Source: an uncultured bacterium
Lineage (GTDB): Bacteria > CSSED10-310 > CALFER01
Assembly: GCA_964472395.1 (NCBI GenBank)
Contig: CAYYMM010000007.1
Location: forward strand, 1,911 to 65,910
Direction of reading: 5' to 3'
DNA: 64,000 nt
The position numbers and the translations under genes were made by a program. Below, piece after piece: positions 6,932 to 58,800 of the stretch (the stretch's first letter is position 1; each line of letters begins with the position of its first letter). The notes under the pieces are model-generated. The model had not been told where the DNA came from, ran no database searches, and saw only the letters and a list, made by a program, of their open reading frames with translations.

Positions 6932-7079
6932 GACACAAAATCCCAGTCAGCCGGAGAAGAATGGTCAATTGAATCAGTCTGAAAGTCAAGAAGCGGCTTC
7001 AAATTTTTATTTTTACTAAACCTATCGTCCATTTCGACATTATGTTTTGAAGCCCACATCCAATGAAAGGAGGCCGTCG

Positions 7080-7154: not shown

Positions 7155-7217
7155 CAAAAAAACCAATACCCCTTTATAGCAGGATCACCGTACGGGCGGT
7201 TCGTGAACCACCCCCGG

Positions 7218-7345
7218 ATGGGCGCATGGGCGGATGGGCGCATGGGCGGATGGGCGCATGGGCGCATGGGCGGATGGGCGCATGGGCGGATCGCGATCCG
7301 CCCAGACAGCCCAGACAGCCCAGACAGCCCAGACAGCCCAGACAC
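7218..7345. repeat. Compound simple-sequence repeat: (ATGGGCGS)x9, an embedded GGGCGGAT-CGCG-ATCCGCCC palindrome, then (CCCAGACAG)x5
   Basis: Direct reading: 9 tandem 8-mers at 7218-7289, palindrome at 7284-7303, and five 9-mers at 7301-7345. It lies 40 nt upstream of the ABC exporter start. Confidence 0.9.
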
Positions 7346-7382
7346 GAACCCCCCTTGCCAGTCGATACCCCTGGAGGATTAC

Positions 7383-12299: not shown

Positions 12300-14009
12300 A
12301 TGAAATCATTTCGTATTGTTTCGATCTTGATTTTATCAGTTCACTGTTATTATAGCTCTAATGCCCAAGAGTGGTTCATCTATCCTATTGTTCCGACAAC
12401 TAACAAAGATCTCACCGCAGTATGTGTCCCTTCCGAAGGAATTTTTAAGAATCAACCATGGGTCGTCCTTGATACATTTGCTGCACCCAGCTTTATTCAT
12501 GTGATTTCTCCAGAAACGATTTCGGTTGAAACAGCGTATGGTTTACACGGTAAAGTTTCTCAGTTGATGCACAACCCGGATGGCAACTTGCTGTTTTTCT
12601 GTGTCAGCGATTGGGAAGGCGCATGGATTTACAGAAGAGAACAAAACAACCTTTGGCAGCAGGTTTTCAGCTATGAGATGGTTGAGACAGAGAGACAAGC
12701 AACGATTTTCTGGAATCGAGATTCCAGACACTGGGATCTGCACGTTTCCAAAATTCAAGATTATAGGGAATATGAGATGGCTATTTTATGGAACCACGCG
12801 ATCTGGCATCTCGAACTCGCGCCATCGAATTTCCTGATCCTGTCTCAGGAATGCGAGTTGCTCTATCCATGCACCATTCGAACGACTCCGGGAGGGTCGA
12901 TCATCTGGGCGGAAATCTACGAAATGTACTATCCATCTTCAAGCCTCCATATGTTGATGTGGAAGTACTGCGAACCGCCCGACTGGGAAACAGACACGTC
13001 GATCGTCCCTATTCCCGGTGCGACGTTCTATGAACAGGAACAGTCACAACCATCCGAGACATCGTTTCGAATGCTTCAGGATGTCGATCCGGGACATTCC
13101 TGGATTGCAGCCTGGAATTTTAGAAGTCACTATTTTGCAAAGTCCAAGTTGGGGCCTATGATACTTTTAGAACCCGGCCAAACCGTTTTTGACACTTTGG
13201 TTGTAGATGATTTAACTACAGCAATTCTCTACGGAGGTCCCGGTCTTTTTTTGCGGGAATGCCGATCCGGAGTCTGGATGGATCCGATACTGATCAGTGA
13301 GGATCCGGCCTTTCAGGCACAGATGGATTATGCATCGGAGAAATATTGGATCGCATATCGCTCAGCTCAGACATTGTATTTCGTTTTTCAGGATGAGATC
13401 CCTGCGACACCTACCACAGGCCCCTCATACACTCCAACCAGCACAGCTACTCCCACTGCAACCAAGACGTTCACACCGACACGAACTCCAACACGAACAC
13501 CGACACGGACACCAACGCCAACTTTCTCCGCAACCGTAACTGAAACTCCAAGTTCAACACAAACTCCGGTGCCAAGCCCTACGATGACAACAACTCCGAC
13601 TCTGACTCCAACCCCTTCCTTGACACCTTCGCATACACCCACTCCAAATTGCTCATACCTTGGCGTGACCCTGACAATGCCATTCCATGAGTTTACATCG
13701 GGAACCGTGTGCTTTCTTAACGCAAGCATCTGTAATTCGTTTACAGAAGACATTCATGACATTGCATTTTTCTGCCTTCTGGATGTCGCTGGTTCATATT
13801 GGTATTTTCCCGATTGGGAACAGTCTCCAGGCTGGTACTCGATTGCAGTTTTACCGACTGGCACATCCGAGATTCATGTGATTGATTCTTTTCTCTGGCC
13901 GTCTGGATCCGGAGCATGCTCCAATGCCCGATTCGTTTCGGCGATCATGGACATTGAATCGAATACAATCCAAGGATCCATCCATGAATGGCCGTTTTCC
14001 TTTCATTGA
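12300..14009 (+). CDS. Secreted hypothetical protein with a Pro/Thr-rich linker and a conserved C-terminal domain; low-GC gene
   Basis: Strong SD GGAGGTAGA-ATG and an N-terminal signal peptide. The linker reads [17 protein letters not shown].... The C-terminal ~120 aa ([17 protein letters not shown]...) resembles the C-terminus of the 41281..45825 protein. The region is markedly AT-richer than its flanks. Confidence 0.6.
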
Positions 14010-24350: not shown

Positions 24351-24413
24351 CTCAGAACCCCCGGCGGTCAAGTATACCGGGATCGGTCGTCCGGATAAAG
24401 ACATTTCAGGATT

Positions 24414-40493: not shown

Positions 40494-40691
40494 GAAGCCT
40501 CCCGACCCTTTCGAATCGAGATCCACCTCTTTTACCCGGCACGCACATGATTGTCAAGTATTTTCGATGAAGCAGCGCGTTCAGGTCCGGTTCAGTCTGT
40601 AACGGTTGTCTTTGTAGATCCTCTAATTATATGATTTATGGATGGATCCGCCGAGTCCGCGGATCGAGATTCCCACGAAAGGAGCATAGAA

Positions 40692-41162
40692 ATGATTCAT
40701 CGATATCTGATCGGGCTTGCAGTCGCCGCCGTTCTGGCAGGCTGCGCGACGACTCCCCCGGTTCCTCTTCCCGATCGCGTGTCACGCATCGATCCGTCTG
40801 CATCTTGCGAGTGCGAGCCGCAAGCCGGCACCTGGGATGTCCGCGCACAGTTGACGGAAGATGGCGAAAGGGCGTATCTGGCGGTGTATCTGGACAGTCC
40901 GTTCGACACCATCCGGGAGCCCCAGATCAAAACCACCGGTATCGCGATCTACAAAGGTAAATCCGGCAAGACCTATTTCTATGATCTCGGACAAATCACC
41001 CGATCACGAACCGTTGGGACCCTGTTCATCGAGGATCCTTCCAAGTCCCGAGTGGGATCCGAAGTCATGTATCAAGCGTTCAAGATGGAGCGCCGCGAAG
41101 GCTCCGATTGTCTCAGATTGGACGACCGGGGTATGCATCGAGGAGCACTTGGAATACCCTGA
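40692..41162 (+). CDS. Hypothetical lipoprotein
   Basis: SD AAAGGAG; lipobox LAGCATT after a hydrophobic h-region. Confidence 0.5.
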   Translation: MIHRYLIGLAVAAVLAGCATTPPVPLPDRVSRIDPSASCECEPQAGTWDVRAQLTEDGERAYLAVYLDSPFDTIREPQIKTTGIAIYKGKSGKTYFYDLGQITRSRTVGTLFIEDPSKSRVGSEVMYQAFKMERREGSDCLRLDDRGMHRGALGIP

Positions 41163-41280: not shown

Positions 41281-44200
41281 ATGAACCGTTCCGTTCGACA
41301 GTCGCCAGCAGGATTTCTTCGAGGCATTTTGCTCGCCATGAGCCTGCTCTCGGTTTTCCTGCCCAACCTTCATGCATTTACCGAAGCCGAACCCAGTGTG
41401 CTGGAGCGTGATCTTCTGATTCCTCCAGATGCCTCCATCCTCGTTTCCCCTTCTCTTTCTCCCTTCTTCCTCTCCGGCAACAATCCGCCTTCAAATCCGC
41501 GCATTCTGAATTTCATGACTCGCTACGGTGCGCAATGGGATGTGCAGTGGGATCTGCGATCCGATCGGCCGGATCTGATCTCGGGACAAGGCATCCCGCT
41601 GATCCCAGGCCCCGGCAACTCGCTAACGCTCAGCGATGTGACTGTCATGGGGAAACCGATCCAGACACTCGATCGCACCGCCATGTCGGAACTCGCGATC
41701 CAGTTCATCGAAGATCAGTTCGACGTGCTTCGGGTCGAACCCGCCGATCTCAAACTCGATGAACTCGCGACAGAAACCTTCGGGAACAACCGGCTATGGT
41801 TCGTGGTCTTCAACCAGGTGCATCGCGGGATCCCGGTCAAGCACGCGCAGGTGTTCGTGCGGGTGAACTCGGGAAACGTCACGCAATTCGGCGCTCATCG
41901 GTATTTTCCGGTTGATCCGTCTTTGAATACGGTTCCGACGATCCGCGCCGAAAAAGCGCTCGAAATAGCCACGGCCCACGCCGACCGTCTCGCATTCGGC
42001 GACCTCGACATCGTCGATCCTCCTGAACTACTCTGGATTCAGACTTTCACTGAGACCGACGACCTGATTCCCGGTGAGCCATTCACCGGAACGCCCGGAC
42101 AGGGCTATTCACATCGGCTCGTTTGGGAAACGCGCTTTCGGCTCGATCCCAATCCTGAAACATGGTTTGCCGTCATCGATGCGCAATCGGGAGAGATCCT
42201 GTCGTTTCGCAATGACAATCGCACCGCTGCCGTTTCCGGAGGTGTCTATCCGGTCACCAACATCGATACGGAAGTGAACCTGCCGTTTTCGTTTGCGAGC
42301 ACCTCACAGGGAACCGCGACGAGCGGCGGTCGATATACGTACACGGGTGGTACGGCTTCCTGCACCATGAATGGTCAATATGTCCGGATCAGCGACAACT
42401 GCGGATCGATCAACCTGTCAACCTCGGCGGATCCCGGAGATTTGAACTTCGGCGGCAGCGCCGGGCAGGATTGTACAACACCTGGGTTCGGCGGTTCGGG
42501 TAATACACACGCCTCCCGATCCTGTTACTTCCATGTCAACGACATCAAGATGAAGGCACGAGGGTATCTGCCGTCCAACTCGTGGCTGCAGCAGAATATG
42601 ACAGCCAATGTCAATATCAACGATACCTGCAACGCCTACTGGAACGGCAGCACGATCAATTTCTATCGATCCGGTGGGGGCTGTTCGAACACCGGTGAAA
42701 TTTCTTCGGTATTTCTGCATGAGTGGGGTCATGGGCTGGATGACAACACCGCTACCGGATCGCCGGACATGGCATCCGCGGAAGCACTCGCCGACAGCAT
42801 GAGCTTCCTGCATACTCAGGTGTCGTGCATCGGCCACAACTTTCAGCCCGGATCGCCCTGCAGTTTCGGGTGCGATTCGACCTGTACCGGTGTTCGTGAC
42901 GCCGGTGTGAGACCGTTTGTTCGGCCGTCCAACATCACGTCGGCACCGGCGAATTGCGACCGCTGGAGCTGCCCGTATTACGGGTACGACGGGATCATGG
43001 GATACGAGGGACACTGCGAAGCCCTCATCGCCGCAGGCGCCATCTGGGATGCCGCCAATAAACTCGCCACTCAGATGGGAGGAAAGGCCGGATGGGAACA
43101 CGCCAATCGTCTGTTCTTCGAAACGATGGGAAGCGCAGGAGCAGCCTACCAGATCCAGTCCGGCGGGACGTGTAATCCGAGCGCCACGATCAATGGTTGC
43201 GGGAGTACGAACTATTATCAGACCTGGATCTTTGCGGACGACGACAATGGAAATCTCGCAGACGGAACGCCTCATGGATGCGAACTGTGGAACGCCTTCA
43301 ACGACCATGGCATTGCATGCGGCACACAACCGGCCTGTTACACGACCTGCCCGACGATCTCGACACCCACACTTGCCGTCATCCCCGGTGATGACTCGGC
43401 CACCGTTTCCTGGTCATCCGTACCGAACGCCTCTACCTACCGGGTTTTTCGAAACACTGTCGGCTGCAATTTCGGGATGACTCTGATCGGAACGAGTTCG
43501 ACCACGCAATATGTCGACAGTTCCGTCGCGAATGACTTTACTTACTACTACGCCGTCCAGGCTGTCGGTTCGAACGACGCCTGTGTTTCGGCTTTTTCGA
43601 CCTGTCAGGCCGTCGAGATCACGGGATGCGCCAACCCGCCGCTGGTCGATGCCGGAGGCAACCAGGAGACCTGTCCGGGACAGGCGGTGACAATCGGAGG
43701 CAATCCGACGGCATCGAGCGGTACACCACCTTTCACCTATCTGTGGACACCAGGCAACTATTCAAGTTCCAATCCGTCGGTCAGTCCGAACCAGACGACA
43801 ACCTACACGGTGTTTGTGACCGACGGCATCGGCTGTGTGGGATCGGATACCGTCACCGTCACCATCGATTCGCCCCCGACGAATGCCGGATTCGACCAGT
43901 TCACGTGTGCGGGGCACTGCGTCCAGATCGGAGCCGCTCCGGTATCGGGATACACCTATCAATGGTCTCCAACGACTGGCCTTGACAATCCGACCATCGC
44001 CAATCCGATGGCGTGTGTCTCGCAGACCACGACCTATACGTTGACAGTCAATGCCTCCGGGTATCTCTGCCAGGGACGCGACACCGTCGTCGTGACAGTC
44101 GCTCAACCGTCTCTGTCCTTCGATAACGCCGATGTCATTTCGGATTCCGGTGATTCGGACGGATCGCCAGAATCCGGCGAACGGATCCAGATCAGAATCA

Positions 44201-45825
44201 CGATCCGGAACAGCTCCCCGATTACCGCATACGACGTCACAGCGAACCTGAGTTCACCGGATAATCTCATTCATGTTGTCTCCAGCCCGCAATCCCTTGG
44301 CGATCTCGGTTTCAACGCAACGGCTGCCGCAACATTCGAATTCATCGTGGACATGACGCATGAATGCCCCGATCTGACATCGCTGACTCTGAACCCCTCC
44401 GCATGCGGAGGCCCGACGAGTGCGCTGCTGATTCCTTTGCAACTCGGTCAGTCCGGGGGGATCGAAACATTCTATTCGACCGGATTCGAAGGCACATCGG
44501 ACGAGGGATGGACCCACGTCCAGGTCTCGACGCAGGACGATTGGCAACGAGGATCCTGCACCGGCACGAGTGAATATGATCCATCTAACGCATTTGAAGG
44601 AGTGAATGTCTGGGGCAATGATCTCGGATACGAAGGGTATGACGGCAACTACAAGAACAATGTGAACAACTATCTGCTGTCCCCGGTAATCAATTGCACG
44701 GGAAAGGCCGGAGTCCGGTTGCAGTTCCACCGCTGGTTGAGTGTCGAAGCCGGCATATACGATCAGGCGACGGTATATGTGAACAATCAGCAGATCTGGC
44801 AGAACGCGCAGAACAACGACCAGGTGGATACCGCGTGGGTCCCGGTCGATTACGACATCTCAGCGATTGCCGACAACAATCCATCGGTACAGATCAAGTT
44901 TGAACTGATATCGGATGGAGGAGTCACCTTTGGCGGATGGAATATCGATAACTTCAAGCTGGTTTCCGATTCTCCACCGGAATGCGATTCCTTCGAATGC
45001 TCAGGCCCCTATGCAAATGCCGGCCAGGATGTCACCTCACCCGCAGGAAGCGCGGTCGTACTCAATGGCGCAGGATCATCAATCGTCAACTGCGTAGCCG
45101 GTATTCAGTATCGCTGGCGAGGTGGCGAACTCGGAGCCGGTGCATGGTTATCCGGACCGACGGTAACGGTTTACCCGACGGAAGCCACGACCTATACATT
45201 GGAGATCCGATGCTCGGGGAGTCCGGATTATGCCGGCTGTTCCGCTTCGGACACGATGTCGGTATACATGTCCGGACAGCCGACGCCGACGGCTCCGCCT
45301 CCCACTGCGACTTTCCCGCCTTCGACGGCGACACCGACCCAAGTTCCTCCCACATTCACCCCTCCTCCTCCACCGACAGCGACTCCGACAACTGCCCCGG
45401 GAGAACCCACCAACACACCGGTTCCTCCGACACCCACACCGACCACGATGCTGCCGTCTCCGACACCCACATCATCATCCGGAGGACTCACCGTCAATCT
45501 GCTGCTTTCGCGAACCGAGTTTCACGCGGGCGATCCATTCCTGCTTGCAACGCAGGTCGACAATCCCGGCGCGGCCATTCTGGTCGACGAATACCTCCTT
45601 CTGGAAGTCTACGGAAACTTCTGGTTTTATCCGTCCTGGCAGCAGGATCTCGATCGGATGCAACGCGTGATCGAACCGGGTCAGTCGGTGACAACGATTT
45701 TCAACTTCCTCTGGCCTCAGGTCGACGGACAGGCTGAGGGGATACTCTTCCATTACATCCTGTGTCAACCGCAGACGTACCAGTTGCTGAGCAACTATGT
45801 GTTTGTGGAGTTCAGCTATCGCTGA
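41281..45825 (+). CDS. Giant secreted multidomain protein (1514 aa) with HExxH zinc-metallopeptidase motif, FN3/Ig-like beta-sandwich repeats, Pro/Thr-rich linker and conserved C-terminal domain
   Basis: Strong SD AAGGAG; signal peptide; VFLHEWGHGLDDN; FN3-like TVSWSSVPNASTYRVFRN; PT linker PTPTAPPPTATFPPSTATPTQVPP...; C-terminal LLEVYGNFWFYPSWQQD... homologous to the C-terminus of 12300..14009. Confidence 0.7.
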   Translation: MNRSVRQSPAGFLRGILLAMSLLSVFLPNLHAFTEAEPSVLERDLLIPPDASILVSPSLSPFFLSGNNPPSNPRILNFMTRYGAQWDVQWDLRSDRPDLISGQGIPLIPGPGNSLTLSDVTVMGKPIQTLDRTAMSELAIQFIEDQFDVLRVEPADLKLDELATETFGNNRLWFVVFNQVHRGIPVKHAQVFVRVNSGNVTQFGAHRYFPVDPSLNTVPTIRAEKALEIATAHADRLAFGDLDIVDPPELLWIQTFTETDDLIPGEPFTGTPGQGYSHRLVWETRFRLDPNPETWFAVIDAQSGEILSFRNDNRTAAVSGGVYPVTNIDTEVNLPFSFASTSQGTATSGGRYTYTGGTASCTMNGQYVRISDNCGSINLSTSADPGDLNFGGSAGQDCTTPGFGGSGNTHASRSCYFHVNDIKMKARGYLPSNSWLQQNMTANVNINDTCNAYWNGSTINFYRSGGGCSNTGEISSVFLHEWGHGLDDNTATGSPDMASAEALADSMSFLHTQVSCIGHNFQPGSPCSFGCDSTCTGVRDAGVRPFVRPSNITSAPANCDRWSCPYYGYDGIMGYEGHCEALIAAGAIWDAANKLATQMGGKAGWEHANRLFFETMGSAGAAYQIQSGGTCNPSATINGCGSTNYYQTWIFADDDNGNLADGTPHGCELWNAFNDHGIACGTQPACYTTCPTISTPTLAVIPGDDSATVSWSSVPNASTYRVFRNTVGCNFGMTLIGTSSTTQYVDSSVANDFTYYYAVQAVGSNDACVSAFSTCQAVEITGCANPPLVDAGGNQETCPGQAVTIGGNPTASSGTPPFTYLWTPGNYSSSNPSVSPNQTTTYTVFVTDGIGCVGSDTVTVTIDSPPTNAGFDQFTCAGHCVQIGAAPVSGYTYQWSPTTGLDNPTIANPMACVSQTTTYTLTVNASGYLCQGRDTVVVTVAQPSLSFDNADVISDSGDSDGSPESGERIQIRITIRNSSPITAYDVTANLSSPDNLIHVVSSPQSLGDLGFNATAAATFEFIVDMTHECPDLTSLTLNPSACGGPTSALLIPLQLGQSGGIETFYSTGFEGTSDEGWTHVQVSTQDDWQRGSCTGTSEYDPSNAFEGVNVWGNDLGYEGYDGNYKNNVNNYLLSPVINCTGKAGVRLQFHRWLSVEAGIYDQATVYVNNQQIWQNAQNNDQVDTAWVPVDYDISAIADNNPSVQIKFELISDGGVTFGGWNIDNFKLVSDSPPECDSFECSGPYANAGQDVTSPAGSAVVLNGAGSSIVNCVAGIQYRWRGGELGAGAWLSGPTVTVYPTEATTYTLEIRCSGSPDYAGCSASDTMSVYMSGQPTPTAPPPTATFPPSTATPTQVPPTFTPPPPPTATPTTAPGEPTNTPVPPTPTPTTMLPSPTPTSSSGGLTVNLLLSRTEFHAGDPFLLATQVDNPGAAILVDEYLLLEVYGNFWFYPSWQQDLDRMQRVIEPGQSVTTIFNFLWPQVDGQAEGILFHYILCQPQTYQLLSNYVFVEFSYR

Positions 45826-46179: not shown

Positions 46180-46893
46180 TCATTTGAGGGTTTGTTTGAT
46201 CTGCTGGAGTTCTTTGTGCAGCTGAATCATTCCCAGAATGGTGCGATAGACGGCCGAGGGTTTGACAGTAGTCTGACCGGCATGACGCGGCAGGTGCGTG
46301 ACACCGATTTCTTTGACTCTGAATCCATACACGACCGCCTTGGCCATGATTTCCGTATCCACCATGAAGTGCTCCGACTTGATCTTGATCCTGTCGAACA
46401 CTTCCCTGCGGAAAAATTTGAACGCACAATCCACATCCCGAACCGTGAATTTAAACACCGCGTGAGACATCAGATTGAAACAACGGGAGACGAATTTACG
46501 GATCCATGGATCCTGGCGATCTTTCCGATATCCCACCACCAGATCGAAATCCCGAGTGTACGGCAACAATAGATCGATCTCATCCAGCTTGAACTGGCAG
46601 TCGGAATCCGAGTAAAAGATCAGGGATTTTTTTGCGTTCGTGAAACCGGTCCGCAGAGCTGCCGTATAGCCGCGGTTGGGTGTATGCGTATAGACGACAA
46701 GATTGGCGTATTGCGTCTGAAGTCGCCTCAACACGTTCGCTGTGTCATCCAGCGAGCCATCATCCACGACGATGATCTCGTAATCGGACGAAACCTTGCG
46801 AACCGCCGCATCGGCCTCGGCAAGCAATCGATCCAGGTTGTCCTGTTCGTTGTATGCCGGAAAAACCATTGAGATCGAGTAATCAGAGTTCAT
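46180..46893 (-). CDS. GT2-family glycosyltransferase, polyprenol-phosphate sugar synthase (DPM1/GtrB-like, soluble)
   Basis: ISMVFPAYNEQDNLDRLL...YEIIVVDDGSLDDT (DxD region) and a typical GT-A core. Start chosen at MNSDYS (ORF track extends to 47004). Confidence 0.75.
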   Translation of the reverse strand: MNSDYSISMVFPAYNEQDNLDRLLAEADAAVRKVSSDYEIIVVDDGSLDDTANVLRRLQTQYANLVVYTHTPNRGYTAALRTGFTNAKKSLIFYSDSDCQFKLDEIDLLLPYTRDFDLVVGYRKDRQDPWIRKFVSRCFNLMSHAVFKFTVRDVDCAFKFFRREVFDRIKIKSEHFMVDTEIMAKAVVYGFRVKEIGVTHLPRHAGQTTVKPSAVYRTILGMIQLHKELQQIKQTLK

Positions 46894-46970
46894 AAACACC
46901 TCGTTGTGAATGTCTCTGGCTCCTTCATTATACATCTTTCGGCGTGGCGAACCATAGAAATCTCCCGGAT

Positions 46971-47579
46971 TCAGTCCTTTTTCCGGCAAACCACCATTGT
47001 CCATGGAAACGGTCTGAGCACCACCGCGATACGGAAGTATTCGTCGAGCAACCGGAGAATTCCGCGGCGGGACCAGTGCTGGACATGTCCGGGTGTGTTA
47101 CCAAGATCCCGGATATAGCGCCCCGAGATCACATTACCGATCCTCCAGACCGGTTCCCATGGTACGCTGATGATAAAATCCCGGCGACCAACACGCGCGA
47201 GCTCCTCCAAACCGGCTCGGATATCCGTGAGATGTTCGAGCACTTCGAGTGCCAGAACCAGGTCGTAACTCCTGTCGCGAAACGGGACAGCCCCGCACGA
47301 TGCCTGAGTAAAACACGATGCCTGCGCCCGATTCATGGCCCGTTTCAGTTCCTCAAATCCCAGATCCAACCCGCATGCGACAGGCATCGGCTTCCATCTC
47401 CGCCTCACACGCTCCAGCATGACTCCGTCTCCACATCCGATCTCAAGGACGGAACGCGGAGGCGCGATGACATGCGTCGCCTGGTCGAACGCGTTGAGAA
47501 ATCCGGTCATGAGCCATTTCGTCACCGGGTTATTCGAATCGTATTTATTGTATTGATTGCCCAAAGGAACCCGGTTCAT
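46971..47579 (-). CDS. Class I SAM-dependent methyltransferase
   Basis: VLEIGCGDGVMLERV (motif I); YDLVLALEVLEHL. Confidence 0.7.
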   Translation of the reverse strand: MNRVPLGNQYNKYDSNNPVTKWLMTGFLNAFDQATHVIAPPRSVLEIGCGDGVMLERVRRRWKPMPVACGLDLGFEELKRAMNRAQASCFTQASCGAVPFRDRSYDLVLALEVLEHLTDIRAGLEELARVGRRDFIISVPWEPVWRIGNVISGRYIRDLGNTPGHVQHWSRRGILRLLDEYFRIAVVLRPFPWTMVVCRKKD

Positions 47580-49087
47580 CCCGTGTGCCCCCCTTCCCCA
47601 TCAGTCGATCTATCACAACACGTTTCAGGAAGATCCGCACTGGAGTGAAGCATGGCACGAATACCGAAAAGATGCCTCCAGGCGATTTCCTTCGTGATGA
47701 TCAACACGAGACTGTACACCATCACCATGAGCGGTACGGCCGCCGCAAGCTTCAGATAACCCCTCAACGGCAGAAAGAATCCCACCGCATAGACAGACGC
47801 ACCTGCCATACAGGTGTTGATCCACGTCGAGAACCTGACGAGTGTGAAACCGGAATTTCTGAGATCTCGGAAGGCCATCATCATACCGATCAACCAGAAC
47901 ACACCCGCACCGATCGCCGCGCCTTCGATGCCGTACTCCGGAACCAGGACCGTCAACCCGCCGACTTCCAATCCGATCGTCAGAAGGGCTGTGCGGATGG
48001 ATCGTGACGGCAGGCCGCTTCCGGTTAGAAGGATGAACGAGATAAACATCATCGAGTAGAACACCTCGCCGATTGGCAGGATTCTGAGCGCGTACCGTCC
48101 CTCCCAGTACGCGTGCGGATAGACCAGTTGAAGCAACTCGGGTGCAAGCGCTGCGATTCCGGTCGCGATCAGGCAACTGTACAACAAGGTGACTCTCAGA
48201 ATCCGCTCGGCACGCAGTGCTGTTTTCCGGGTATCCCTTTCCATTCGACTTGATGAAATGAGAGGGAAGGCCACAAGTCCAATTGCGACGACGCAGATAT
48301 ATGGGATTCTGGAAAAAGTCTGAGCCGCCGTGTAAAAACCTGCCGATTCTCCCGAATACGCCGCCGGCATCAGGGCTTTGACTGCAAATAGATCGAGATT
48401 GAGCAGCAGATTGTTGAACAGTGTGATCAGCATCGTCGCACACTGAAAGTTGATCAGAATCCGGCAGGAGAACATACTCCCGATGGTGCGCGCCGGTACC
48501 TTTGATAACACCATGAATCCGATGCTGATGATGACCAGGGATGCGATCAGGTATCCCAGAAATGCCCCGGGCACTCCTTCGCCGAAAAACGCGAATGCCA
48601 GAACAAGAATCGTTTTCAGGAGTGCAAACGAAACATCCAGCGCTGACTGACGAGCAAACAGCCTCCGACCGTTTAACTCCCCCATCACGACACCATACAA
48701 TGCATACACGCATGGCAATAATGCACCGATCCGGATCAGACGTACCAGGCCGGGATCCTTCAAAACACCCGCGATCCAAGGTGCGGTCAGAATGATGGCG
48801 GCACAGAGAACCCAACCGAATCCGAATTGGAAGAACAACGCCGTACGGCGAATACTGGATTCCGAATACTCACCGGACGACACGAATCGCGAAATCGCCT
48901 GGATCGTGCCAACGATGACGGTCATGTTGAAAACATTGAGATATCCGAGAGCGACACCGAACTGACCAAATGCCGATGGTTCGTTCAGAATCCGAGGAAG
49001 GAAAAAGTAGATGGCGTATCCGGAAAGCATGAAGGCCAGTTTGGCCGCGGATAATGCGAGGAACCCGGAAGCTGCCGATTTCATCAT
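47576..49087 (-). CDS. Polysaccharide biosynthesis protein / MOP-superfamily (Wzx/MurJ-like) flippase
   Basis: 503 aa with ~12-14 hydrophobic helices and a MOP-like N-terminus. Confidence 0.65.
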   Translation of the reverse strand: MMKSAASGFLALSAAKLAFMLSGYAIYFFLPRILNEPSAFGQFGVALGYLNVFNMTVIVGTIQAISRFVSSGEYSESSIRRTALFFQFGFGWVLCAAIILTAPWIAGVLKDPGLVRLIRIGALLPCVYALYGVVMGELNGRRLFARQSALDVSFALLKTILVLAFAFFGEGVPGAFLGYLIASLVIISIGFMVLSKVPARTIGSMFSCRILINFQCATMLITLFNNLLLNLDLFAVKALMPAAYSGESAGFYTAAQTFSRIPYICVVAIGLVAFPLISSSRMERDTRKTALRAERILRVTLLYSCLIATGIAALAPELLQLVYPHAYWEGRYALRILPIGEVFYSMMFISFILLTGSGLPSRSIRTALLTIGLEVGGLTVLVPEYGIEGAAIGAGVFWLIGMMMAFRDLRNSGFTLVRFSTWINTCMAGASVYAVGFFLPLRGYLKLAAAVPLMVMVYSLVLIITKEIAWRHLFGIRAMLHSSADLPETCCDRSTDGEGGHTG

Positions 49088-49124
49088 TCAGTCAGCGGAT
49101 CCAACTCGATTCGAGGGCATCCGG

Positions 49125-51755
49125 TCATTGGGAAAACGATGACGGGAAGAGATGAAAACAACTCTCCGGCGCTCCGTCGAGAACAACCATGCACAGTTCG
49201 AGTGGTCCTTTCACCGGGAGACGACCCGGTTCGATCTCGAGCAGAAAACTTCCCGGCACCGATGGCGAATCATCCTCCGGGATAAACACAAGCTGTGCCC
49301 CGTCACCTTTCCATGTCGATTGTGTCGGCACCTGTTTATAATTGATCGGAATGCTGATCCGACCATTCACCCAGAGTTCAGCCGAGAGTTCGGTCCCGGA
49401 GAATGCCCCGGAAAACGTGATTTTCGCAGTGGCATTCGCCTCGATGTTCTCTGTTTTCCAACAGAACGTATCGACATCGTCGCCCTGACAAACCCGGTGC
49501 TCCGTTATGAGTTTCTGATCATCTCCGCCTGCATCGCTCGCATCGGGTTGTGTTGCCCTGCCGGCTATTGCACGAATCCGGGTCAGATCGAAATCCGCCG
49601 GTTGATGGCTCTGCTGGTGCTCCAACTCGATGCTTCTGCCTTCCGTGTCGATCAGGCGGAGCGTGAAGTACCAATCTCCGACCCCCTCACATGATCTCAC
49701 GAATACCTGATTCCACCCTTCCACAAGGACACAATCCCTTGTATCGACACGTGTCGACTGGAGGACGGTCTTTTCAAGAACCACTTGCCCGTTGATGGTG
49801 ATTTCGAATGGGTCGGGTGACCCGAAGACTTCAATCCGCGCGTGCTGAGTCTGCGAACTCTGGATATATGTGCAGGCCTTGCCGCAGCATTCCTCGGGAT
49901 TGTTCTGCGTTTGCGGGTCCTTTCGGGCAAAGAAACCGTTCAAATCCACGTTGATGAACTGATTGTCCATTCGCTGCCATTGGATCGGCCCATGCATTCC
50001 GTCATACTTCCGATCGGGATCGGTTGAATAATCTGGTTCCGATTGCACGAAAAATTCCTCGCGCGGGGTTCCGAACAACCCGAGAGCGCTCCATTCCGTC
50101 AGGAACTGTTTTCTCTTTTTCAGATCGATGATGACAAACTCGGTGACTCCATCGGGACCGATGATTTCCTTCTTGACGTCATACTCCTCGAAGTAATTCA
50201 CCTCATTGGGTCGAACTGCGAACAGAGTGGGTTTTTCGACATCATATCGTCTGAATTCATCCGGTTTGAACTCCTGATAGCCGGTTCTGCGACCGTTGAC
50301 CCAATCATTTGGATCTTTCCGGGTGTAGAACAGCGCAAAGATGTACGGCATGTTGACATCGGTGGCAGTCAGGAAGCGTTGAGGATAGTCATCCTTTACA
50401 GATTCCATGTATTCATACAGTTCGCGATACCCATACTGGAAGCCGTAAATACCTCGGGCGGATTGTTTATAGTAACTGCCGTAATACCGAGTCTGGTACG
50501 CTCGTACGTCGCGCACGACGCAGACCAGAAGGAAGCCGGTCAGAGACAAACCGATGAGGATTGCGAGCCATCGCCAGCGGATGCGCATGATCCAGGACAA
50601 CGCGGTTACACAGGTGAATGCACCCAGAATTGCGGGCAGGGGGCTGCCGATGATCGAACGGGTCGCCGACATTTCCTCGTGCATCAGCGCCGCCCCTATG
50701 GGAAATGTCATCAGCCACCATAGCATCATCAATCGGAAACGAGACGGCGTCCAGGAAATCAGTCCGAGACCGCCAAGGATAAGTGGAAAGAATGACCAGT
50801 ACAGCTCCCCATGACCACTGACTGAATGACGGATCAGCGGATCACCCGTACGAAAAAGAAAATCAACCCCGTAGTAACCCTGGTAGTTTTTCAGGAAGAT
50901 GTCTGCTTTTTCCTTGAGGGGTTTGTCTTGAATGACCCACGAGTTCCGTTTGAAATACTGGTCTGTGCGAGGTTTTGTCAGGTTGAAGTGGACGAATGGG
51001 GCCACAGTAAGAAGGATGATCACGATTCCGGAGAAAAAGCTGAGTTTATGTTTGAGGATATCCTTGAAAAATAGAACGAAAACTCCTCCTAGGAAAAGCG
51101 GCACAAAGAGATTCGCGATCGCGTAACTGTATGGAGTCAACCCGAAAAGGAACATGGCAACTGCCCAGTTGAAGCCTCCCCGACGAATGGCACGAACTAG
51201 AAAAACCATTCCGATCATGAACAGACATGGAAACGAGATCAACTCAAAGGCGATGCGACTCATATGGATATGCCAAGGGGTTACAGCCAGAAAAAAACTG
51301 CCGAAAAGGGCTGCTGTCGCGCCCCACAACTCATTGATCATCCAGAATAGCGCCAGGACTGTGATCCATCCGAACAACACGCTCGTGAGTCGAAGCGACA
51401 TTTCAGATAGACCAAACACCTTGATCGGGAACATCGCGGCATATATAAAAACCGGGTTCTTGTAGCTGACGAACGACCATGAGAACAACGGCCATCGAAC
51501 ACCGTTCTCATCGATTCCGTAGTTTGCGAGTGCAAATGCGTTGTACCCCAGTCCGGCTTCATCGCAATACAATCCGGCGGGGACATCACCGACTCTGTAG
51601 AAGCGAATGCCGAAGGCGAGTGCGGCAATCAGGATCAAGAAGAACCAGTGACATGGCCGAAGACGACGACTGAAAATCAGACTCGCATCCGCGTCAACGT
51701 CCGCACCGAGCTGATCGAGATATTCTTGCGGAGGAGTTGTATCGATCGCTTGCAT
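49125..51755 (-). CDS. GT-C-fold glycosyltransferase (ArnT/PMT, GT39/GT83-like) with large C-terminal periplasmic domain
   Basis: First-loop motif FYRVGDVPAGLYCDEAGLGYNAFALANYGIDENG; multi-TM N-terminal half; ~450-aa soluble C-terminus. Start chosen at MQAIDT (ORF track extends to 51872). Confidence 0.65.
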   Translation of the reverse strand: MQAIDTTPPQEYLDQLGADVDADASLIFSRRLRPCHWFFLILIAALAFGIRFYRVGDVPAGLYCDEAGLGYNAFALANYGIDENGVRWPLFSWSFVSYKNPVFIYAAMFPIKVFGLSEMSLRLTSVLFGWITVLALFWMINELWGATAALFGSFFLAVTPWHIHMSRIAFELISFPCLFMIGMVFLVRAIRRGGFNWAVAMFLFGLTPYSYAIANLFVPLFLGGVFVLFFKDILKHKLSFFSGIVIILLTVAPFVHFNLTKPRTDQYFKRNSWVIQDKPLKEKADIFLKNYQGYYGVDFLFRTGDPLIRHSVSGHGELYWSFFPLILGGLGLISWTPSRFRLMMLWWLMTFPIGAALMHEEMSATRSIIGSPLPAILGAFTCVTALSWIMRIRWRWLAILIGLSLTGFLLVCVVRDVRAYQTRYYGSYYKQSARGIYGFQYGYRELYEYMESVKDDYPQRFLTATDVNMPYIFALFYTRKDPNDWVNGRRTGYQEFKPDEFRRYDVEKPTLFAVRPNEVNYFEEYDVKKEIIGPDGVTEFVIIDLKKRKQFLTEWSALGLFGTPREEFFVQSEPDYSTDPDRKYDGMHGPIQWQRMDNQFINVDLNGFFARKDPQTQNNPEECCGKACTYIQSSQTQHARIEVFGSPDPFEITINGQVVLEKTVLQSTRVDTRDCVLVEGWNQVFVRSCEGVGDWYFTLRLIDTEGRSIELEHQQSHQPADFDLTRIRAIAGRATQPDASDAGGDDQKLITEHRVCQGDDVDTFCWKTENIEANATAKITFSGAFSGTELSAELWVNGRISIPINYKQVPTQSTWKGDGAQLVFIPEDDSPSVPGSFLLEIEPGRLPVKGPLELCMVVLDGAPESCFHLFPSSFSQ

Positions 51756-51970
51756 CTTTGTTTGAGTCTCCACTGTTGTCCTTGATGACCTCCTCAATCG
51801 AAGCAGTAAAAAGCTCGTTAGAATAGCGTACCATACATTTGCTTCGCAATCGACAGCAACGGTATACATCATGTCATTGTTCCGAACTCCGGATTTTTAC
51901 GGCACAAATCCGATGGTTATGCTATTGTGGAATGTCGTCAATGTCTGACTGGAACGCCGAGGGCATTTTC

Positions 51971-52921
51971 ATGAAACTCGTGATCCAAATCCCCTGCTTC
52001 AATGAAGAAGCCAACCTCGCACGCACCATACGCGATCTTCCGGATCGGATCGATGGGATCGATTCGATCGAGATTCTGGTGATCGATGATGGATCGACAG
52101 ATCGCACGATTTCGGTTGCGCGCGAGTCAGGTGTGCATCACGTCCTCCCACTCAACTCACATCTCGGACTCGCCCGTGCATTTTCGGAGGGAATCCGGTA
52201 TAGCATCTATCAACTTCAGGCCGACATCATCGTCAACACCGACGCCGACAACCAGTATCAGGCAAGCTTCATTCCGGATCTGATCCGGCCCATCATGGAC
52301 AACATCGCGGATATCGCAGTCGGATGTCGACCGATTCATCGAATCCCGCATTTTTCAACCAGCAAAAAGCTCCTTCAGAAAACCGGAAGTGCCCTGGTCC
52401 GATTCCTGACCGGTTTCAAGGTAGATGATGCGGCCTCGGGATTTCGGGCTTACAACCGTCGCGCGGCACGACGCATCAAGATCGTTTCGGATTTCACTTA
52501 CACGATCGAATCGCTGATTCAGGCCAGCCGAAGTGGCTTTCGCTTGAGGTCCGTTCCGATCGAGATCAATCCGCCCGTTCGCCCGAGCCGCTTGTTTCGA
52601 GGAGCATTTGGATACATTACCCGGCAGATCATGACCATGTTACGAATTTGGGCACTTTACAGCCCTGTCAAGCTGTTCGTCCGCACCGGTGTTCTCAGCC
52701 TGGTATTGGGAAGCGGGCTTCTCCTTCGCTTTGTCTATTATTACCTCATTTCCTGGCCGGAACCATCCGGCAAAGTTCAATCGCTCATCATCTCCAGTGT
52801 GTTTTTGATGTTTGGGCTGTTCCTGGTCCTGATCGGAGTCATTGCCGATCTGCTCGCGGTCAATCGCAGACTGACCGAGGAAGTGATTGATCGGCTGGAC
52901 GAGATTGATTTCAAGGAATGA
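51971..52921 (+). CDS. GT2-family polyprenol-phosphate glycosyltransferase (ArnC/GtrB-like, with 2 C-terminal TM helices)
   Basis: MKLVIQIPCFNEEANLARTI...ILVIDDGSTDRT...DADNQY, and C-terminal TM helices (VLSLVLGSGLLL..., FLMFGLFLVLIGVIADLLAV). Confidence 0.8.
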   Translation: MKLVIQIPCFNEEANLARTIRDLPDRIDGIDSIEILVIDDGSTDRTISVARESGVHHVLPLNSHLGLARAFSEGIRYSIYQLQADIIVNTDADNQYQASFIPDLIRPIMDNIADIAVGCRPIHRIPHFSTSKKLLQKTGSALVRFLTGFKVDDAASGFRAYNRRAARRIKIVSDFTYTIESLIQASRSGFRLRSVPIEINPPVRPSRLFRGAFGYITRQIMTMLRIWALYSPVKLFVRTGVLSLVLGSGLLLRFVYYYLISWPEPSGKVQSLIISSVFLMFGLFLVLIGVIADLLAVNRRLTEEVIDRLDEIDFKE

Positions 52922-55899: not shown

Positions 55900-58800
55900 T
55901 CATGTGGCGGTGTGTTTCGACGACTAGGATAGACCCGTCAGGCAGAACCGAGAGTCCCATGGGAAGTGTCAGGCGACGTCCATCCGGTCGCTGATCGACC
56001 GTTTTCAGCAGAGTTCCGTTCCGATCTGTGACATACAAGCGATTGGCGTTGGGATCAGATATCCAAACCTGATCTTGCTGATCGACGACGATGTATGGTT
56101 CGACGAACACGTTTCCCTCCCAACCATTAACAGGCCATTCCCGGAGGTAGTTCAATTCCGAATCGAACACTTGAACACGTCTGTTCTTTGCGTCATTCAC
56201 GAACACCTCACCTTTACTCACACAAATACCGATCGGTTCGACAAACTGGGACGGTCCCTTTCCCAGGGTTCCGATACTTTTAACGAGCTTACCCTGAGTG
56301 GTGAGTTTGACGATTCGGTTGCGTCCTGAATCCGCGACATACAAAAAGCCGTTTCCGTCGGCTGTCAATCCTCTCGGATAGAAGAAAGCGCCGTCGGCAT
56401 CACGCCATTCGCTTATATACTGACCATCATGATCGTATTTCTGGATTCGATTGTTAAATGTATCAAGAACATAAACACCAGCCTTGTCGACGGCAATATC
56501 ACACAGATCGTTGAATCCTTTGTCCTCTTCCGATATCGGACTTTCCCATAAGAAGAGAAAGTTACCCAGATTATCGAATTTCTGCACGCGGTGATTTCGG
56601 AAATCTGCGATGTAAACGAATCCTTCGGAGTCGACATCGAGCGATCGGGGTTCACGGAACTGACCTCTCGCTTCTCCCTCACCACCTTGATACATCGTTC
56701 GCGGCGGGCTGTTTCGGATCTGTTCGATCCGGGCGAGTTCCGCCTGTCGTTCCTGCTCGATACGATCGGCCTCCTCCTGGATCAGACGCTGTTGCAGTTC
56801 GGCAAGTGCGTCATTCCCCGAGGCGACCTTCGCGAAATCCACATTGATACCGTAGTCATTTACCTGATAGATGATCACTTCACTGTTCGCGTAGACCGGA
56901 GTCATGTAGTCGGTCAGTTCACTAAATTTATTCAGTCCGGTCTCCGAGTACTGCTTCCGCTCGGTCTTGCCTACAAAAATCAGGTTGACATTGTAGTTCC
57001 GCAGATGTTCGAGTACCAGAGGGATGTCGAGGCTGTCATAAATTGTCTTGATCCCAATCTTGATGCGACCTGTATCGCGTTTATACTCCCGTTGATCCAC
57101 ATGGCTCCACCAACCGAGCACAGTCGGGATCCCCGTATTTGCCGAAATCCGTCCGAACTCGTACAGGTAATCCGCGCCCGTCGCCTCAAGAATCACTGCA
57201 TCGGATGGAGCATTTCTGCTCAACCACTCGATCGCTCTGTATTCCTGCTGCAATCGCCCAGTTTTCATATAGGCGTGACCATCGAGTGTAAGAGGAAGTT
57301 TCTCACGCGCGTATTCATCATGATGACGTCGGGCATACGGTCCCATAACTGTGAAGATCAGCGCTGAACCTAGAAAGAAAAGAAATACAAGATTCCACGC
57401 CCATCCTGCGGCGCGATGCCGCAAACCGGATCGGGTCGCCGCGAACATTCGCACCCGGCGTCTGACACCAACGAGATATGATGCGACAAGAGCGAAGAAG
57501 AACCAGGCCTGCATGTAGAATTTGAATATCGTGTTGAACCGTCGATGATCACCACCCTGATAGAAATCCTTTATGTAAACGATTTCACATCCGGCGGTAA
57601 TCGCGAATGCCATGAACGATATTAGGTAGACAAATCGTCGATCCCCATCCTGCAGTTCTTTTGAACCGAGATACACGATCAGACCGATCATCCCAAGGCT
57701 GTACAGAAAAACGGAATAGTCGATCTTCAAGAAGAAGAGACCGCCGAGCAACATGACGATCAAAATGGCCACGTACGAGAATCCGATGCCGAACACCCGC
57801 ATCAGCGACCGACCTCGACCTCGTTCATATCCGATCCAGATCTTGATTAGAATTGTAGTCAGAATAAACAGGTAGAAACCGAACATGGTGAAAAAGCCAT
57901 CGAAATTCGTCGTTTGTTTATGCTCGAACAGAAAGCCGATTCCCATGTCCTTGCGGGAGAAATGCATCAGATACGGGAGATACAGAGCAATGCTGACGCC
58001 GATCAGAATCAACCATGGGAGGAGAATCTGAGAAAAATTGCGCTTGATGGGTATTGCACCCAGGAGATGGCTGATCATGGAGACCGTATCACGGAAAAAC
58101 GCAACAGGGAATCGTAATCCGCGACGGGCTTTGGTGGGAACAGGTTGAGGAAACTCCTCGACCGGAGCGAGCGCAAGAATTTCCTGCTCCATTCGATCCG
58201 GAATCTGATCAGACTCCTCGGGTTGATCGGTATCATTAACCGGGTTGACCGGTTCCGTGCCCGGAGCTACGGTAACAATCTCTTGAACCTCAACAGGTTC
58301 GATCGCAAGCGGAATAGCCTCTTCACAAACAGTCTGAGTCCGATTTTCGAGTTCGACTGTCTCAACGGATGCCGGTGTCGCCGCGGTTATGGGTATGATC
58401 TCCTCGACAAGTGAAGATTCAGGTGTTGCTGCAGCAGGAGGCAACTCTTCGGAAGTAACCGGTTCAGGCAGCGGTTCAATCGGAAGTTCGGCGGATTTCC
58501 GATATTCGACTTTCGTGGAACGCGGCCAGAAGAACATGAGAATCAGGAGTACCAGAAGCAGGTAAGTGGGGTAATCCCAGCTGTTCGTTGGAATCATGGC
58601 GCCGAATCCGATACCCGCGACCAGAACGGTACACCAGGCTGTGATTCCGGATCCGAAGATACCGCTTTGATTGATCTTGTTTCTGTAAAAGACGAATACG
58701 AGTGCCAGGCAGAACGTTGCGATGAACGTAGCGATGGTGTGTGCGTGCAGATCCATGAAATTATAGCTCCAGAATGGAAATTCATGGACCGTCGGATTGA

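Follow-up and report, generated by a model that had tools for sequence, protein, structure and literature searches.

The 64,000-nucleotide stretch of DNA analyzed here (the window) encodes two secreted proteins with similar C-termini, which raises the question of whether they share a domain and, if so, what that domain does. The first-pass annotation described a common C-terminal domain behind a Pro/Thr-rich spacer in two otherwise unrelated proteins and proposed that it might be a lineage-specific sorting or attachment tag. The two C-termini (~115 aa) align by BLASTP over 92 aa with 29% identity (E = 8e-10), and their Smith-Waterman score of 91 lies far above the shuffled controls that had been called for (26.7 ± 4.6; n = 5000; z = 13.9; no shuffle scored as high). 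Both match a profile of 60 family sequences over its full length and to the last residue, with E values of ~1e-34 to 1e-39 (5e-39 for the copy in the 1514-aa protein). Linkers of 68 to 84 aa, with 60 to 62% Pro plus Thr, stand directly upstream of both domains, and the N-terminal parts of the two proteins are unrelated (best BLASTP E = 4.1), so that the described architecture holds in each of its parts. A likeness due to chance or composition, with no real shared domain behind it, has nothing in its favor except that low-complexity linkers adjoin the domains; it is refuted by the shuffles, by >1,000 homologues matching over the full length, and by two confident AF2 models, and retains only a negligible probability. 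The two C-termini share a homologous domain, confirming the original observation, and six-frame translation of the window reveals only these two copies.

Table 1. Genes and domain features of the two carrier proteins in the window
Feature	Coordinates	Strand	Basis
Gene of 569-aa secreted protein	12300..14009	+	ORF
Putative Sec signal peptide, 569-aa protein (23 aa)	12300..12368	+	Basic n-region, hydrophobic h-region, hydropathy maximum
Pro/Thr-rich linker, 569-aa protein, aa 367-450	13398..13649	+	P+T composition
Beta-sandwich domain at C-terminus, copy 2 (aa 451-569), Cys-containing subtype (three conserved cysteines)	13650..14006	+	Family profile, AF2
Gene of 1514-aa secreted multidomain protein	41281..45825	+	ORF
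Putative Sec signal peptide, 1514-aa protein (MNRSVRQSPAGFLRGILLAMSLLSVFLPNLHAF)	41281..41379	+	Basic n-region, hydrophobic h-region
Pro/Thr-rich linker, 1514-aa protein, aa 1333-1400	45277..45480	+	P+T composition
Beta-sandwich domain at C-terminus, copy 1 (aa 1401-1514), Cys-free subtype	45481..45822	+	Family profile, AF2

The 1514-aa protein has its hydropathy maximum (ILLAMSLLSV) inside the putative signal peptide and carries a HEWGH zinc-metalloprotease motif (positions 42718 to 42732). Weak Pfam matches to an FTP/PepSY propeptide and to PKD-like and MAM-like domains are followed by the linker, which lies in a P+T-rich run measured at aa 1327 to 1402 (62% P+T), and by the terminal domain. 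The stop codon occupies positions 45823 to 45825, and the interval first assigned to this domain (45475 to 45825) covers both. Orthologues are 56 to 96% identical, and all full-length ones end in the same terminal domain. A small lipoprotein-like ORF upstream of the gene (40638 to 41162) has no counterpart upstream of the Zodletone orthologue. The N-terminal ~365 aa of the 569-aa protein have no match in Pfam, NCBIfam, or PDB. Its linker, within a run measured at aa 364 to 453 (60% P+T), contains a (TPTR)3 repeat (13473 to 13508) and differs by a 4-aa indel from that of a 90% identical protein (P0002).

AF2 models of both copies (pLDDT of 95.5 for copy 1 and 94.6 for copy 2) have 8 strands in the same order and predict an independently folding, eight-strand Ig-like beta-sandwich of ~110 residues that ends in a beta-strand (..VEFSYR in the 1514-aa protein and ..WPFSFH in the 569-aa protein). 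The three conserved cysteines of one subtype would fit disulfide bonds formed outside the cytoplasm. Foldseek matches are generic (TM of 0.5 to 0.6) and spread over CBMs, CARDB, RhoGDI/ML lipid-binding domains, and Spo0M. The best include the porphyran-binding CBM 8wae (E = 4e-4; TM of 0.58), the Wzt O-antigen-binding domain, CARDB, and RhoGDI/ML; RhoGDI and 8wae reach TM values of 0.58 to 0.60, and CARDB structure 3idu, among the best matches of both models, 0.53 to 0.59. Because these matches are generic and scattered, they give no pointer to the ligand. T9SS CTD structures are absent from the top 50 matches of either model.

The first-pass annotation had likened the layout to that of surface sorting or anchoring domains (T9SS CTD, PEP-CTERM, LPXTG) but had recognized no known one in the sequence, and curated models agree. 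T9SS models (TIGR04183/PF18962 for type A and TIGR04131/PF13585 for type B), the PEP-CTERM and LPXTG models of NCBIfam, and dockerin PF00404 matched neither the two window proteins nor any of 60 family members, and PPC (PF04151) and the Pfam CBM models matched none of the 60 members. The transmembrane helix and basic tail of the PEP-CTERM/LPXTG type are missing from the C-termini, which are beta-strands. When the 60 members were scanned against Pfam and NCBIfam at E ≤ 10, single nonsignificant matches were returned and no model recurred. DUF11 matched one of the 60 (E of 0.03 to 0.075), and PF07705, PF01345, and TIGR01451 did not reach significance. Comparison of the domain with a DUF11-like domain inside the 1514-aa protein by hhalign gave a probability of 2%, and the only motif-level match between them among those tested spans 19 columns (..F..GD.F.L....N.G..). 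PDB sequence matches to LRP YWTD repeats (E ≥ 0.01) were discarded as spurious. Judged by these scans, the family has no curated model.

Further members, for which a profile search had been proposed, are abundant: exhaustive HMMER profile searching returned 2,123 cluster representatives at E ≤ 1e-3 and 1,166 at E ≤ 1e-10. A word-indexed search, which is unsuited to a short, fast-diverging domain, returned 1 match with the domain alone and 2 with the 60-sequence alignment. The protein ranked third in the profile search (P0003; 26 stretches) is an artifact of summed weak repeat matches to a 3-sequence profile and does not match the 60-sequence profile; by eye, its C-terminus resembles a T9SS-type tail. 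The domain lies ≤3 residues from the C-terminus or stop in 146 of 152 sequences. Among 76 copies in fetched loci, 64 are C-terminal, 10 (~13%) follow the signal peptide immediately at the N-terminus, and 2 lie inside the protein. The overall preference for the extreme C-terminus (84 to 96%) would be equally expected of a secretion signal. Each protein always carries one copy, never a tandem, and 88 of 130 proteins have a PT-rich stretch (≥40% P+T) ahead of the domain; several N-terminal copies have such a stretch on their downstream side. The invariant Trp, Phe, and Pro positions are concentrated in two motifs close to loops (YWFxPxW and FxWP). The conserved residues L46, F54, P56, W58, F82, W84, P85, G89, and F96 are all kept in N-terminal and internal copies, which indicates a conserved function independent of C-terminal position.

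All named carrier genomes belong to “candidate division CSSED10-310,” reported to be sister to Acidobacteriota (PMC8248873). So far as names allow, the family is confined to this division and to MAGs carrying the same family, and the lineage specificity originally suggested stands to that extent; it is based on one narrow pattern and few named proteins, most metagenomic members being without taxonomy. The genome scan, derived from a 9-sequence alignment, used the single DNA pattern [YF]WF[YFW]P[GST]Wx[QN], so that both the number of copies and the taxonomic spread are minimum values; one MAG contains at least 29 copies in 266 kb, frequently in genes arrayed in tandem. The window also encodes a TonB-dependent receptor, and related loci carry RND/OEP genes; both point to an outer membrane, and CSSED10-310 is taken to be diderm. 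Every named family member seen is annotated as “hypothetical protein” or by its cargo domain.

The carrier proteins look exported, as a crude pattern for putative Sec signal peptides is found in 80 of 111 full-length members. Among 65 proteins scanned, the cargo includes peptidases (Peptidase_S8 in seven, C25 in four, and M14, C1, C11, and astacin), PAD_porph (two), Beta_helix, Chlam_PMP, FG-GAP, and an amidase; CAZymes are rare, with one amylase and one CBM_4_9. The first-pass annotation had also envisaged a cognate machinery, for which clustering of the genes beside cargo genes gave no support: no conserved companion was found, no binding partner, receptor, or machinery gene emerged, and the recurrent neighbors belong to common families (GT2 glycosyltransferases, B12-radical SAM enzymes, and sigma-54 activators). 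When the C-terminal 110 aa of 150 nonfamily ORFs were compared with NCBIfam in a search for T9SS or other sorting signals, sigma-54 regulators dominated among the 25 most frequent families, which were those listed. Local clustering of C-termini over ~670 kb of these genomes turned up no further promiscuous domain at this end.

Outside the family, other modules stand at the same position in homologues of the 1514-aa protease core. In the nearest (53 to 58% identity), a PT linker is followed by Dockerin_1, with or without Cohesin; others have an outer-membrane beta-barrel, PPC or P-domains, or a hydrophobic C-terminal tail. Modules are exchanged at the terminal position of this core, known anchoring modules included. 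The hydrophobic tails of two homologues (P0171 and P0173) resemble IPTL by eye and have no NCBIfam match.

The best explanation, favored tentatively and with a little less than even confidence, is that the domain serves as a common localization module holding secreted proteins at the cell surface of CSSED10-310. It is attached singly to dozens of otherwise unrelated Sec-exported proteins per genome, usually through a flexible Pro/Thr-rich linker at the extreme C-terminus and sometimes right after the signal peptide. After export, it would bind one common envelope component, which may be a surface glycan, LPS or lipid, or a receptor protein, and proteases, adhesin-like proteins, and other exo-enzymes would thereby be held at the surface on a flexible stalk. 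The analysis shows the homology, the predicted fold, the positions, the copy number, the range of cargo, the restriction to one lineage, and the exchange with known anchoring modules in homologues; that the domain binds or anchors, and to what, we infer. Of the two roles first proposed, attachment gains indirect support from the dockerin, beta-barrel, and hydrophobic tail at the same site in homologous proteases; the 10 N-terminal and 2 internal copies are at odds with a sorting signal of the T9SS, PEP-CTERM, or LPXTG type, which must sit at the C-terminus and is cleaved off, and suit a binding or anchoring module better.

The same layout could reflect an export and sorting signal for a dedicated, as yet undescribed outer-membrane secretion or attachment system similar to that served by T9SS CTDs, in which a translocon would recognize the domain and the domain might be cleaved and the cargo covalently attached to a surface polymer. 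Most members have the domain as their very last residues, dozens of cargo proteins occur per genome, the fold is an Ig-like sandwich as in T9SS CTDs (PMC11285876), and the cargo is close to the Porphyromonas T9SS set, with C25 gingipain-like proteases with propeptide, PAD_porph, M14, S8, and PMP/beta-helix adhesins (PMC5445135). Restriction to one lineage would be expected of lineage-specific machinery, and the protease core shows a remote likeness to the “T9SS-dependent M36” family (NF038113; 22 to 25 bits, far under the cutoff, against the core of homologues P0168 and P0176). However, T9SS is described for Bacteroidota/FCB, whereas CSSED10-310 is reported to be sister to Acidobacteriota (PMC8248873, PMC11285876), and T9SS CTDs were found neither by any sequence model nor among the top 50 structural matches. 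No machinery gene recurs beside the cargo genes, and the N-terminal and internal copies (10 and 2 of 76) keep the conserved residues. To our knowledge, no folded secretion signal works directly after a signal peptide. An export signal of this kind is rated as fairly unlikely. It is also rather improbable that the domain addresses proteins to a hitherto undescribed cell-surface system for secretion, attachment, or assembly specific to CSSED10-310. Such a system would be a T9SS-like pathway across the outer membrane, equipped with machinery of its own, or a new plug-and-socket arrangement of the cohesin-dockerin kind by which dozens of proteases and adhesins are organized on the outer surface of a diderm cell.

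A PT-rich linker between a terminal beta-sandwich and a catalytic domain is the classic CBM arrangement, and the domain could likewise be a CBM-like or PPC-like ligand- or substrate-binding module, or a lipid-binding sandwich, directed at an environmental polymer rather than at the cell's own surface. The 8wae, Wzt, CARDB, and RhoGDI/ML structural matches, the invariant aromatic and Pro residues of the loop-proximal motifs, the tolerance of either protein end, and the PPC domains on homologous proteases elsewhere are consistent with such a role. Nevertheless, all fold likenesses are weak and generic, the domain is always single, unlike the many CBMs that occur in tandem, and the cargo consists mainly of proteases, adhesin-like repeats, and proteins of unknown function; with cargo this mixed and CAZymes this rare, a single common environmental substrate is unlikely, and the substrate-binding reading as a whole is given a fairly low probability. 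Far less credible still is a diverged member of a known family (T9SS type A/B CTD, dockerin, or a PEP-CTERM/LPXTG-type signal), which shares with these only the layout of a terminal, postlinker domain on secreted proteins. None of the 60 members matched those families at E ≤ 10, the C-termini (..FSYR, ..FSFH) are strands instead of a helix and basic tail, and an all-beta domain of ~110 aa and 8 strands differs both from the short Ca-binding helices of dockerins and from the 7 strands and ~75 to 80 aa of T9SS CTDs (PMC11285876). The best reading is that the domain is not a T9SS CTD.

Dedicated terminal domains such as the T9SS CTD, dockerin, and SLH have in each case opened the way to a secretion or assembly machine and become practical handles for exoproteome prediction. 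A seemingly large part of the surface and secreted proteins predicted for a rare, uncultured, MAG-only phylum bears the domain described here, which is invisible to current annotation. A curated HMM would annotate >1,000 protein clusters, define the CSSED10-310 exoproteome, and provide a query for a partner or machinery through phylogenetic profiling. The protease-rich exoproteome suggests protein degradation in anoxic sediments.

Several known domains resemble the family in part. Its first half is, in our estimation, reminiscent of the E-set Ig-like domains CARDB (PF07705) and DUF11 (PF01345), but no HMM reaches significance and the second half, with YWFxPxW and FxWP, is specific to the CSSED10-310 family. 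PPC (PF04151) is likewise a small beta-sandwich appended to secreted peptidases, including homologues of the same protease core, but has no sequence match to the domain, which many nonpeptidases also carry. With CBMs and the RhoGDI and ML lipid-binding sandwiches it has in common a PT-linked, aromatic-rich sandwich, a likeness that is only generic, and CAZymes do not dominate the cargo. The type A CTD of the Bacteroidota T9SS (TIGR04183/PF18962, Por_Secre_tail) is also a folded Ig-like sandwich at the extreme C-terminus of Sec-exported proteins, with one copy per protein, dozens of cargo proteins per genome, and strikingly similar cargo (C25, PAD_porph, M14, S8, M36-like, and adhesin-like repeats) (PMC5445135, PMC11285876). 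It is a compact 7-strand (3+4) sandwich (PMC11285876), however, and differs in sequence and length from the CSSED10-310 domain, which typically has a PT linker ahead of it instead of packing on a preceding Ig domain, is not obligately C-terminal, and comes from a lineage outside Bacteroidota/FCB. Dockerin (PF00404), the partner of cohesin, differs in consisting of duplicated Ca-binding helices with no sequence match to this all-beta sandwich, for which no cohesin-like receptor is known. Dockerins nevertheless also occur singly at one end of the protein, in most cases the C-terminus and in some the N-terminus, and are linked through a PT-rich segment to many different secreted enzymes of one genome, and Dockerin_1 occupies exactly the same postlinker position in the nearest out-of-family protease homologues. 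Together with SLH domains and attached T9SS cargo, dockerins provide the model of surface holding for the role proposed here.

The last ~115 residues of the 1514-aa protein, which carries a HEWGH zinc-metalloprotease motif, match those of the 569-aa protein (BLASTP E = 8e-10, 29% identity over 92 aa), and the local alignment score of 91 was reached by none of 5000 shuffles (26.7 ± 4.6; z = 13.9). The two proteins show no relationship in their N-terminal parts (best E = 4.1), and in both the terminal domain lies directly downstream of a Pro/Thr-rich (PT) linker. The C-terminal domain that the first-pass annotation saw shared by otherwise unrelated proteins is therefore present where it was placed, and its alignment stands far above shuffled controls. 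Both N-termini have the basic n-region and hydrophobic h-region of Sec-type signal peptides, as judged from sequence and hydropathy maximum. Six-frame translation of the window revealed no third copy. A (TPTR)3 repeat sits within the linker of the 569-aa protein, and P0002, a homologue with 90% identity, lacks one of the units (a 4-aa indel); close relatives thus differ in linker length.

Coordinates of features in the window and, where a locus is named, in fetched loci of other genomes
Feature	Position	Strand	Remark
Asparagine-synthase-like gene	5258-6931	-	Weak Pfam match
Two tandem ABC exporter genes	7203-9176 and 9130-10944	+	Fused TMD-NBD; adjoin asparagine-synthase-like gene
569-aa protein gene	12300-14009	+	ORF
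PT linker, 569-aa protein	13398-13649	+	aa 367-450; P+T-rich run around linker 60% P+T
(TPTR)3 repeat	13473-13508		Within PT linker
682-aa ORF	20726-22774	-	Two BPD_transp_1 permease domains, OppC_N
SBP_bac_5 binding protein	22776-24404		Adjoins 682-aa ORF
1514-aa protein gene	41281-45825	+	ORF
PT linker, 1514-aa protein	45277-45480	+	aa 1333-1400; P+T-rich run around linker 62% P+T
GT2	46180-47004	-	
Methyltransferase	46971-47579	-	
Polysacc_synt flippase	47576-49087	-	
PMT_2 GT-C enzyme	49125-51872	-	
GT2	51839-52921	+	
NHL-propeller protein fused to PMT_2	52918-55899	+	
1871-aa protein	55871-61486	-	NHL-like C-terminal match
DUF2298	61449-63803	-	
FGE-sulfatase-architecture ORF	L039 9911-11347		
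FGE-sulfatase-architecture ORF	L037 1549-3783		Two FGE-sulfatase-like regions by eye
FGE-sulfatase-architecture ORF	L041 6026-7279		
FGE-sulfatase-architecture ORFs	L042 1989-3308 and 3322-4680		
FGE-sulfatase-architecture ORF	L022 18252-19685	-	
FGE-sulfatase-architecture ORF	L045 1605-5309		
Metalloprotease-core homologue P0168	L046 8001-11786		PT linker, Dockerin_1
Domain-bearing ORF with cohesin-like region	L034 9131-10804		Cohesin-like by eye
Weak Cohesin match	L045 17423-19417	-	Adjoins domain-bearing gene
Group II intron reverse transcriptase	L044 17772-19082	-	RVT_1 + GIIM; 2.97-Mb contig

The terminal domain of both proteins lacks any Pfam or NCBIfam match. A word-indexed search returned a sole relative, P0001, whose ORF is cut off by the end of a short contig and again has a PT linker upstream of the domain. 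Exhaustive HMMER profile searching of 1.84 billion cluster representatives retrieved 2123 proteins at E ≤ 1e-3, of which 1166 reach E ≤ 1e-10, supplying further members of the kind that the first-pass annotation had proposed to seek by HMM, and the match covered the whole domain in the top hits other than P0003. This metagenomic protein (2646 aa; ~19 near-identical ~115-aa repeats plus a tail, T9SS-type CTD-like by eye) was rejected as an artefact: its E value of 1.5e-35 arose with the 3-sequence profile only, from summing many weak partial hits, and it has no match with the 60-sequence family profile. It calls for caution over member counts near the threshold. Among 152 sequences (the top 150 hits and the two window proteins; about 100 to about 1700 aa), the domain ends within 3 residues of the C-terminus in 146, and Pro and Thr make up at least 40% of the 40 upstream residues in 88 of the 130 with enough upstream sequence. 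Where their sources name them, members are called 'hypothetical protein' or take the name of the cargo domain. When 60 members were searched individually against Pfam and NCBIfam (E ≤ 10), only single, nonsignificant matches came up, with none to T9SS, PEP-CTERM, LPXTG, PPC, CARDB, or CBM models, which agrees with the earlier failure to recognize a known sorting or anchoring domain. YWTD-repeat matches, the only ones from a PDB sequence search, were spurious. The terminal domain is a real, large family without a curated model, outside the T9SS CTD, dockerin, PEP-CTERM/LPXTG, PPC, and CARDB families.

AlphaFold2 models of both window copies, based on family alignments (pLDDT 95.5 and 94.6; pTM 0.85), are all-beta, with eight strands in identical order. 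Foldseek searches of the PDB returned only generic Ig-like/E-set sandwiches (TM 0.5-0.6; E about 2e-4 to 1e-3), including a porphyran-binding CBM, CARDB, Spo0M, a GH3-enzyme accessory domain, RbmA, and the Wzt O-antigen-binding domain, as well as RhoGDI and ML-type lipid-binding domains; T9SS CTDs were absent from the top 50 of either model. Lipid-binding beta-sandwiches recur among the weak matches (RhoGDI, NPC2, Der p 2, MD-1, and GM2 activator; TM 0.45-0.60; models m71817f9a1388 and mb699db231a54), a lead from predicted structure toward lipid or LPS binding as a possible anchoring mechanism. Nine positions (L46, F54, P56, W58, F82, W84, P85, G89, and F96) are ≥91% conserved in 192 copies and fall into two motifs, (L)DVYGxYWFxPxW and FxWPxxxG. 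About 30% of copies, including that of the 569-aa protein, make up a subtype with three conserved cysteines, as would be consistent with extracytoplasmic disulfide bonding.

The family seems restricted to a single lineage. A single pattern, [YF]WF[YFW]P[GST]Wx[QN], run against one genome per GTDB species, led to 40 confirmed loci, all from MAGs that bear the label 'candidate division CSSED10-310' (from Zodletone spring and soda-lake sediment [CSSed10_310]) or 'uncultured bacterium', and organism-named members are all CSSED10-310. This phylum is rare, uncultured, Gram-negative by prediction, and reportedly the sister of Acidobacteriota (PMC8248873); a TonB-dependent receptor is encoded in the window. 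The window is 89.4% identical in DNA over 20 kb to one of these MAGs (CALFER01, L003), and the 1514-aa protein has an orthologue with 59% identity in Zod_Metabat.1246, so the window probably belongs to this lineage. In fetched loci, the family profile detected 76 domain-bearing ORFs, of which at least 29 come from 266 kb of CALFER01 MAG sequence, often in tandem gene arrays (up to 5 per 20 kb). In L044, a group II intron reverse transcriptase lies amid domain-bearing genes.

A crude signal-peptide pattern was found in 80 of 111 full-length members. Pfam families in the N-terminal parts of 65 full-length members included Peptidase_S8 (7), Beta_helix (5), Peptidase_C25 (4, three with Propeptide_C25), Chlam_PMP (4), Peptidase_M14 (2), and PAD_porph (2), in addition to FG-GAP, Peptidase_C1, astacin, clostripain, Amidase_3, alpha-amylase, and others. 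The copies in fetched loci are C-terminal in 64 cases, directly after the signal peptide in 10, and internal in 2. Downstream of N-terminal copies, often beyond a PT linker, lie FGE-sulfatase, PEBP, CpeT-like, or unknown domains. Several ORFs share a signal peptide-family domain-PT linker-FGE-sulfatase (SUMF1-like) architecture, and most of their domains have a common signature, ..ALTVGTGDFWF[YF]PSWVQYPPDIDW... All nine conserved residues are kept in N-terminal and internal copies.

For a comparative test, homologues were sought with the 1514-aa protein stripped of its terminal domain. Full-length orthologues (56-96% identity; 1499-1589 aa) all end in the family domain. In the next-closest core homologues (53-58% identity over about 57% of the query), it is replaced by Dockerin_1 above the Pfam gathering score, again after a PT-rich linker (P0168, P0169, P0170, and P0172), and no copy of the family domain turned up in the loci of these homologues. 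P0170 has a Cohesin domain after Dockerin_1 in the same polypeptide, above the gathering score, and P0169 and P0172 have similar tails without a Pfam call, which suggests cohesin-dockerin-type assemblies outside cellulolytic Firmicutes. Other core homologues end, by eye, in a hydrophobic tail preceded by a PIPxxG or IPTL-like motif (no NCBIfam match), or have outer-membrane beta-barrel, PPC, or P-domain/fn3 modules. Known anchoring or sorting modules therefore hold the position of the CSSED10-310 domain across lineages. The core itself scores 22-25 bits, far below the cutoff, against the NCBIfam 'T9SS-dependent M36 metallopeptidase' model. An ORF of L034 combines a region that resembles cohesin by eye with a long linker of PEPTDT repeats, the family domain, and a 154-aa further tail; this region and the weak Cohesin match in L045 could bear on a docking function.

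The 1514-aa gene is followed immediately downstream by a glycosylation-type cluster (46180-63803). In Actinobacteria, O-glycans are added by PMT-type enzymes to Pro/Thr-rich stretches of exported proteins, and by analogy the PT linkers could be substrates of the cluster's PMT-type enzymes. Synteny of the cluster is confined to the close relative L003; the cluster does not lie beside the Zodletone orthologue (L005). In 5 MAGs, domain-bearing genes repeatedly have GT2 genes nearby. Elsewhere in the window, the 682-aa ORF resembles, in its domain content, an OppB-OppC peptide permease fusion and, with the adjoining SBP_bac_5 protein, fits peptide uptake downstream of secreted proteases. The asparagine-synthase-like and ABC exporter genes (5258-10944) may form a peptide-modification and export cluster; L022 has a homologue of the former near domain-bearing genes.

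The best-supported reading, to which we give slightly less than an even chance, is a lineage-specific localization or anchoring module. One folded sandwich on a flexible stalk would bind a single shared envelope component and thereby retain a large and varied set of exported proteins on the cell surface. A serious rival, though an unlikely one, is a T9SS-like export tag with unknown machinery, which draws on the strong C-terminal preference of the domain and on its T9SS-like cargo. What speaks most strongly against a classical secretion signal, C-terminal and cleaved, is the full conservation of N-terminal and internal copies, which suit a binding or anchoring module better. For the lineage-specific sorting or attachment tag first proposed, the lineage restriction holds among named carriers. 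A substrate- or ligand-binding role (CBM-, PPC-, or lipid-binding) is the other rival, about equally unlikely. Clustering of genes neighbouring domain-bearing genes found no conserved partner or machinery, and a dedicated machine or receptor would make the family considerably more interesting.

As an anchoring module, the terminal domain could plausibly organize the exoproteome of an uncultured phylum. Its cargo closely resembles that of the Porphyromonas T9SS, which includes gingipains, PPAD, and CPG70 (PMC5445135, PMC11285876). The family itself lacks a curated model, and terminal localization modules on secreted proteins are of a well-known kind; anchoring would work as it does for SLH domains or dockerins.
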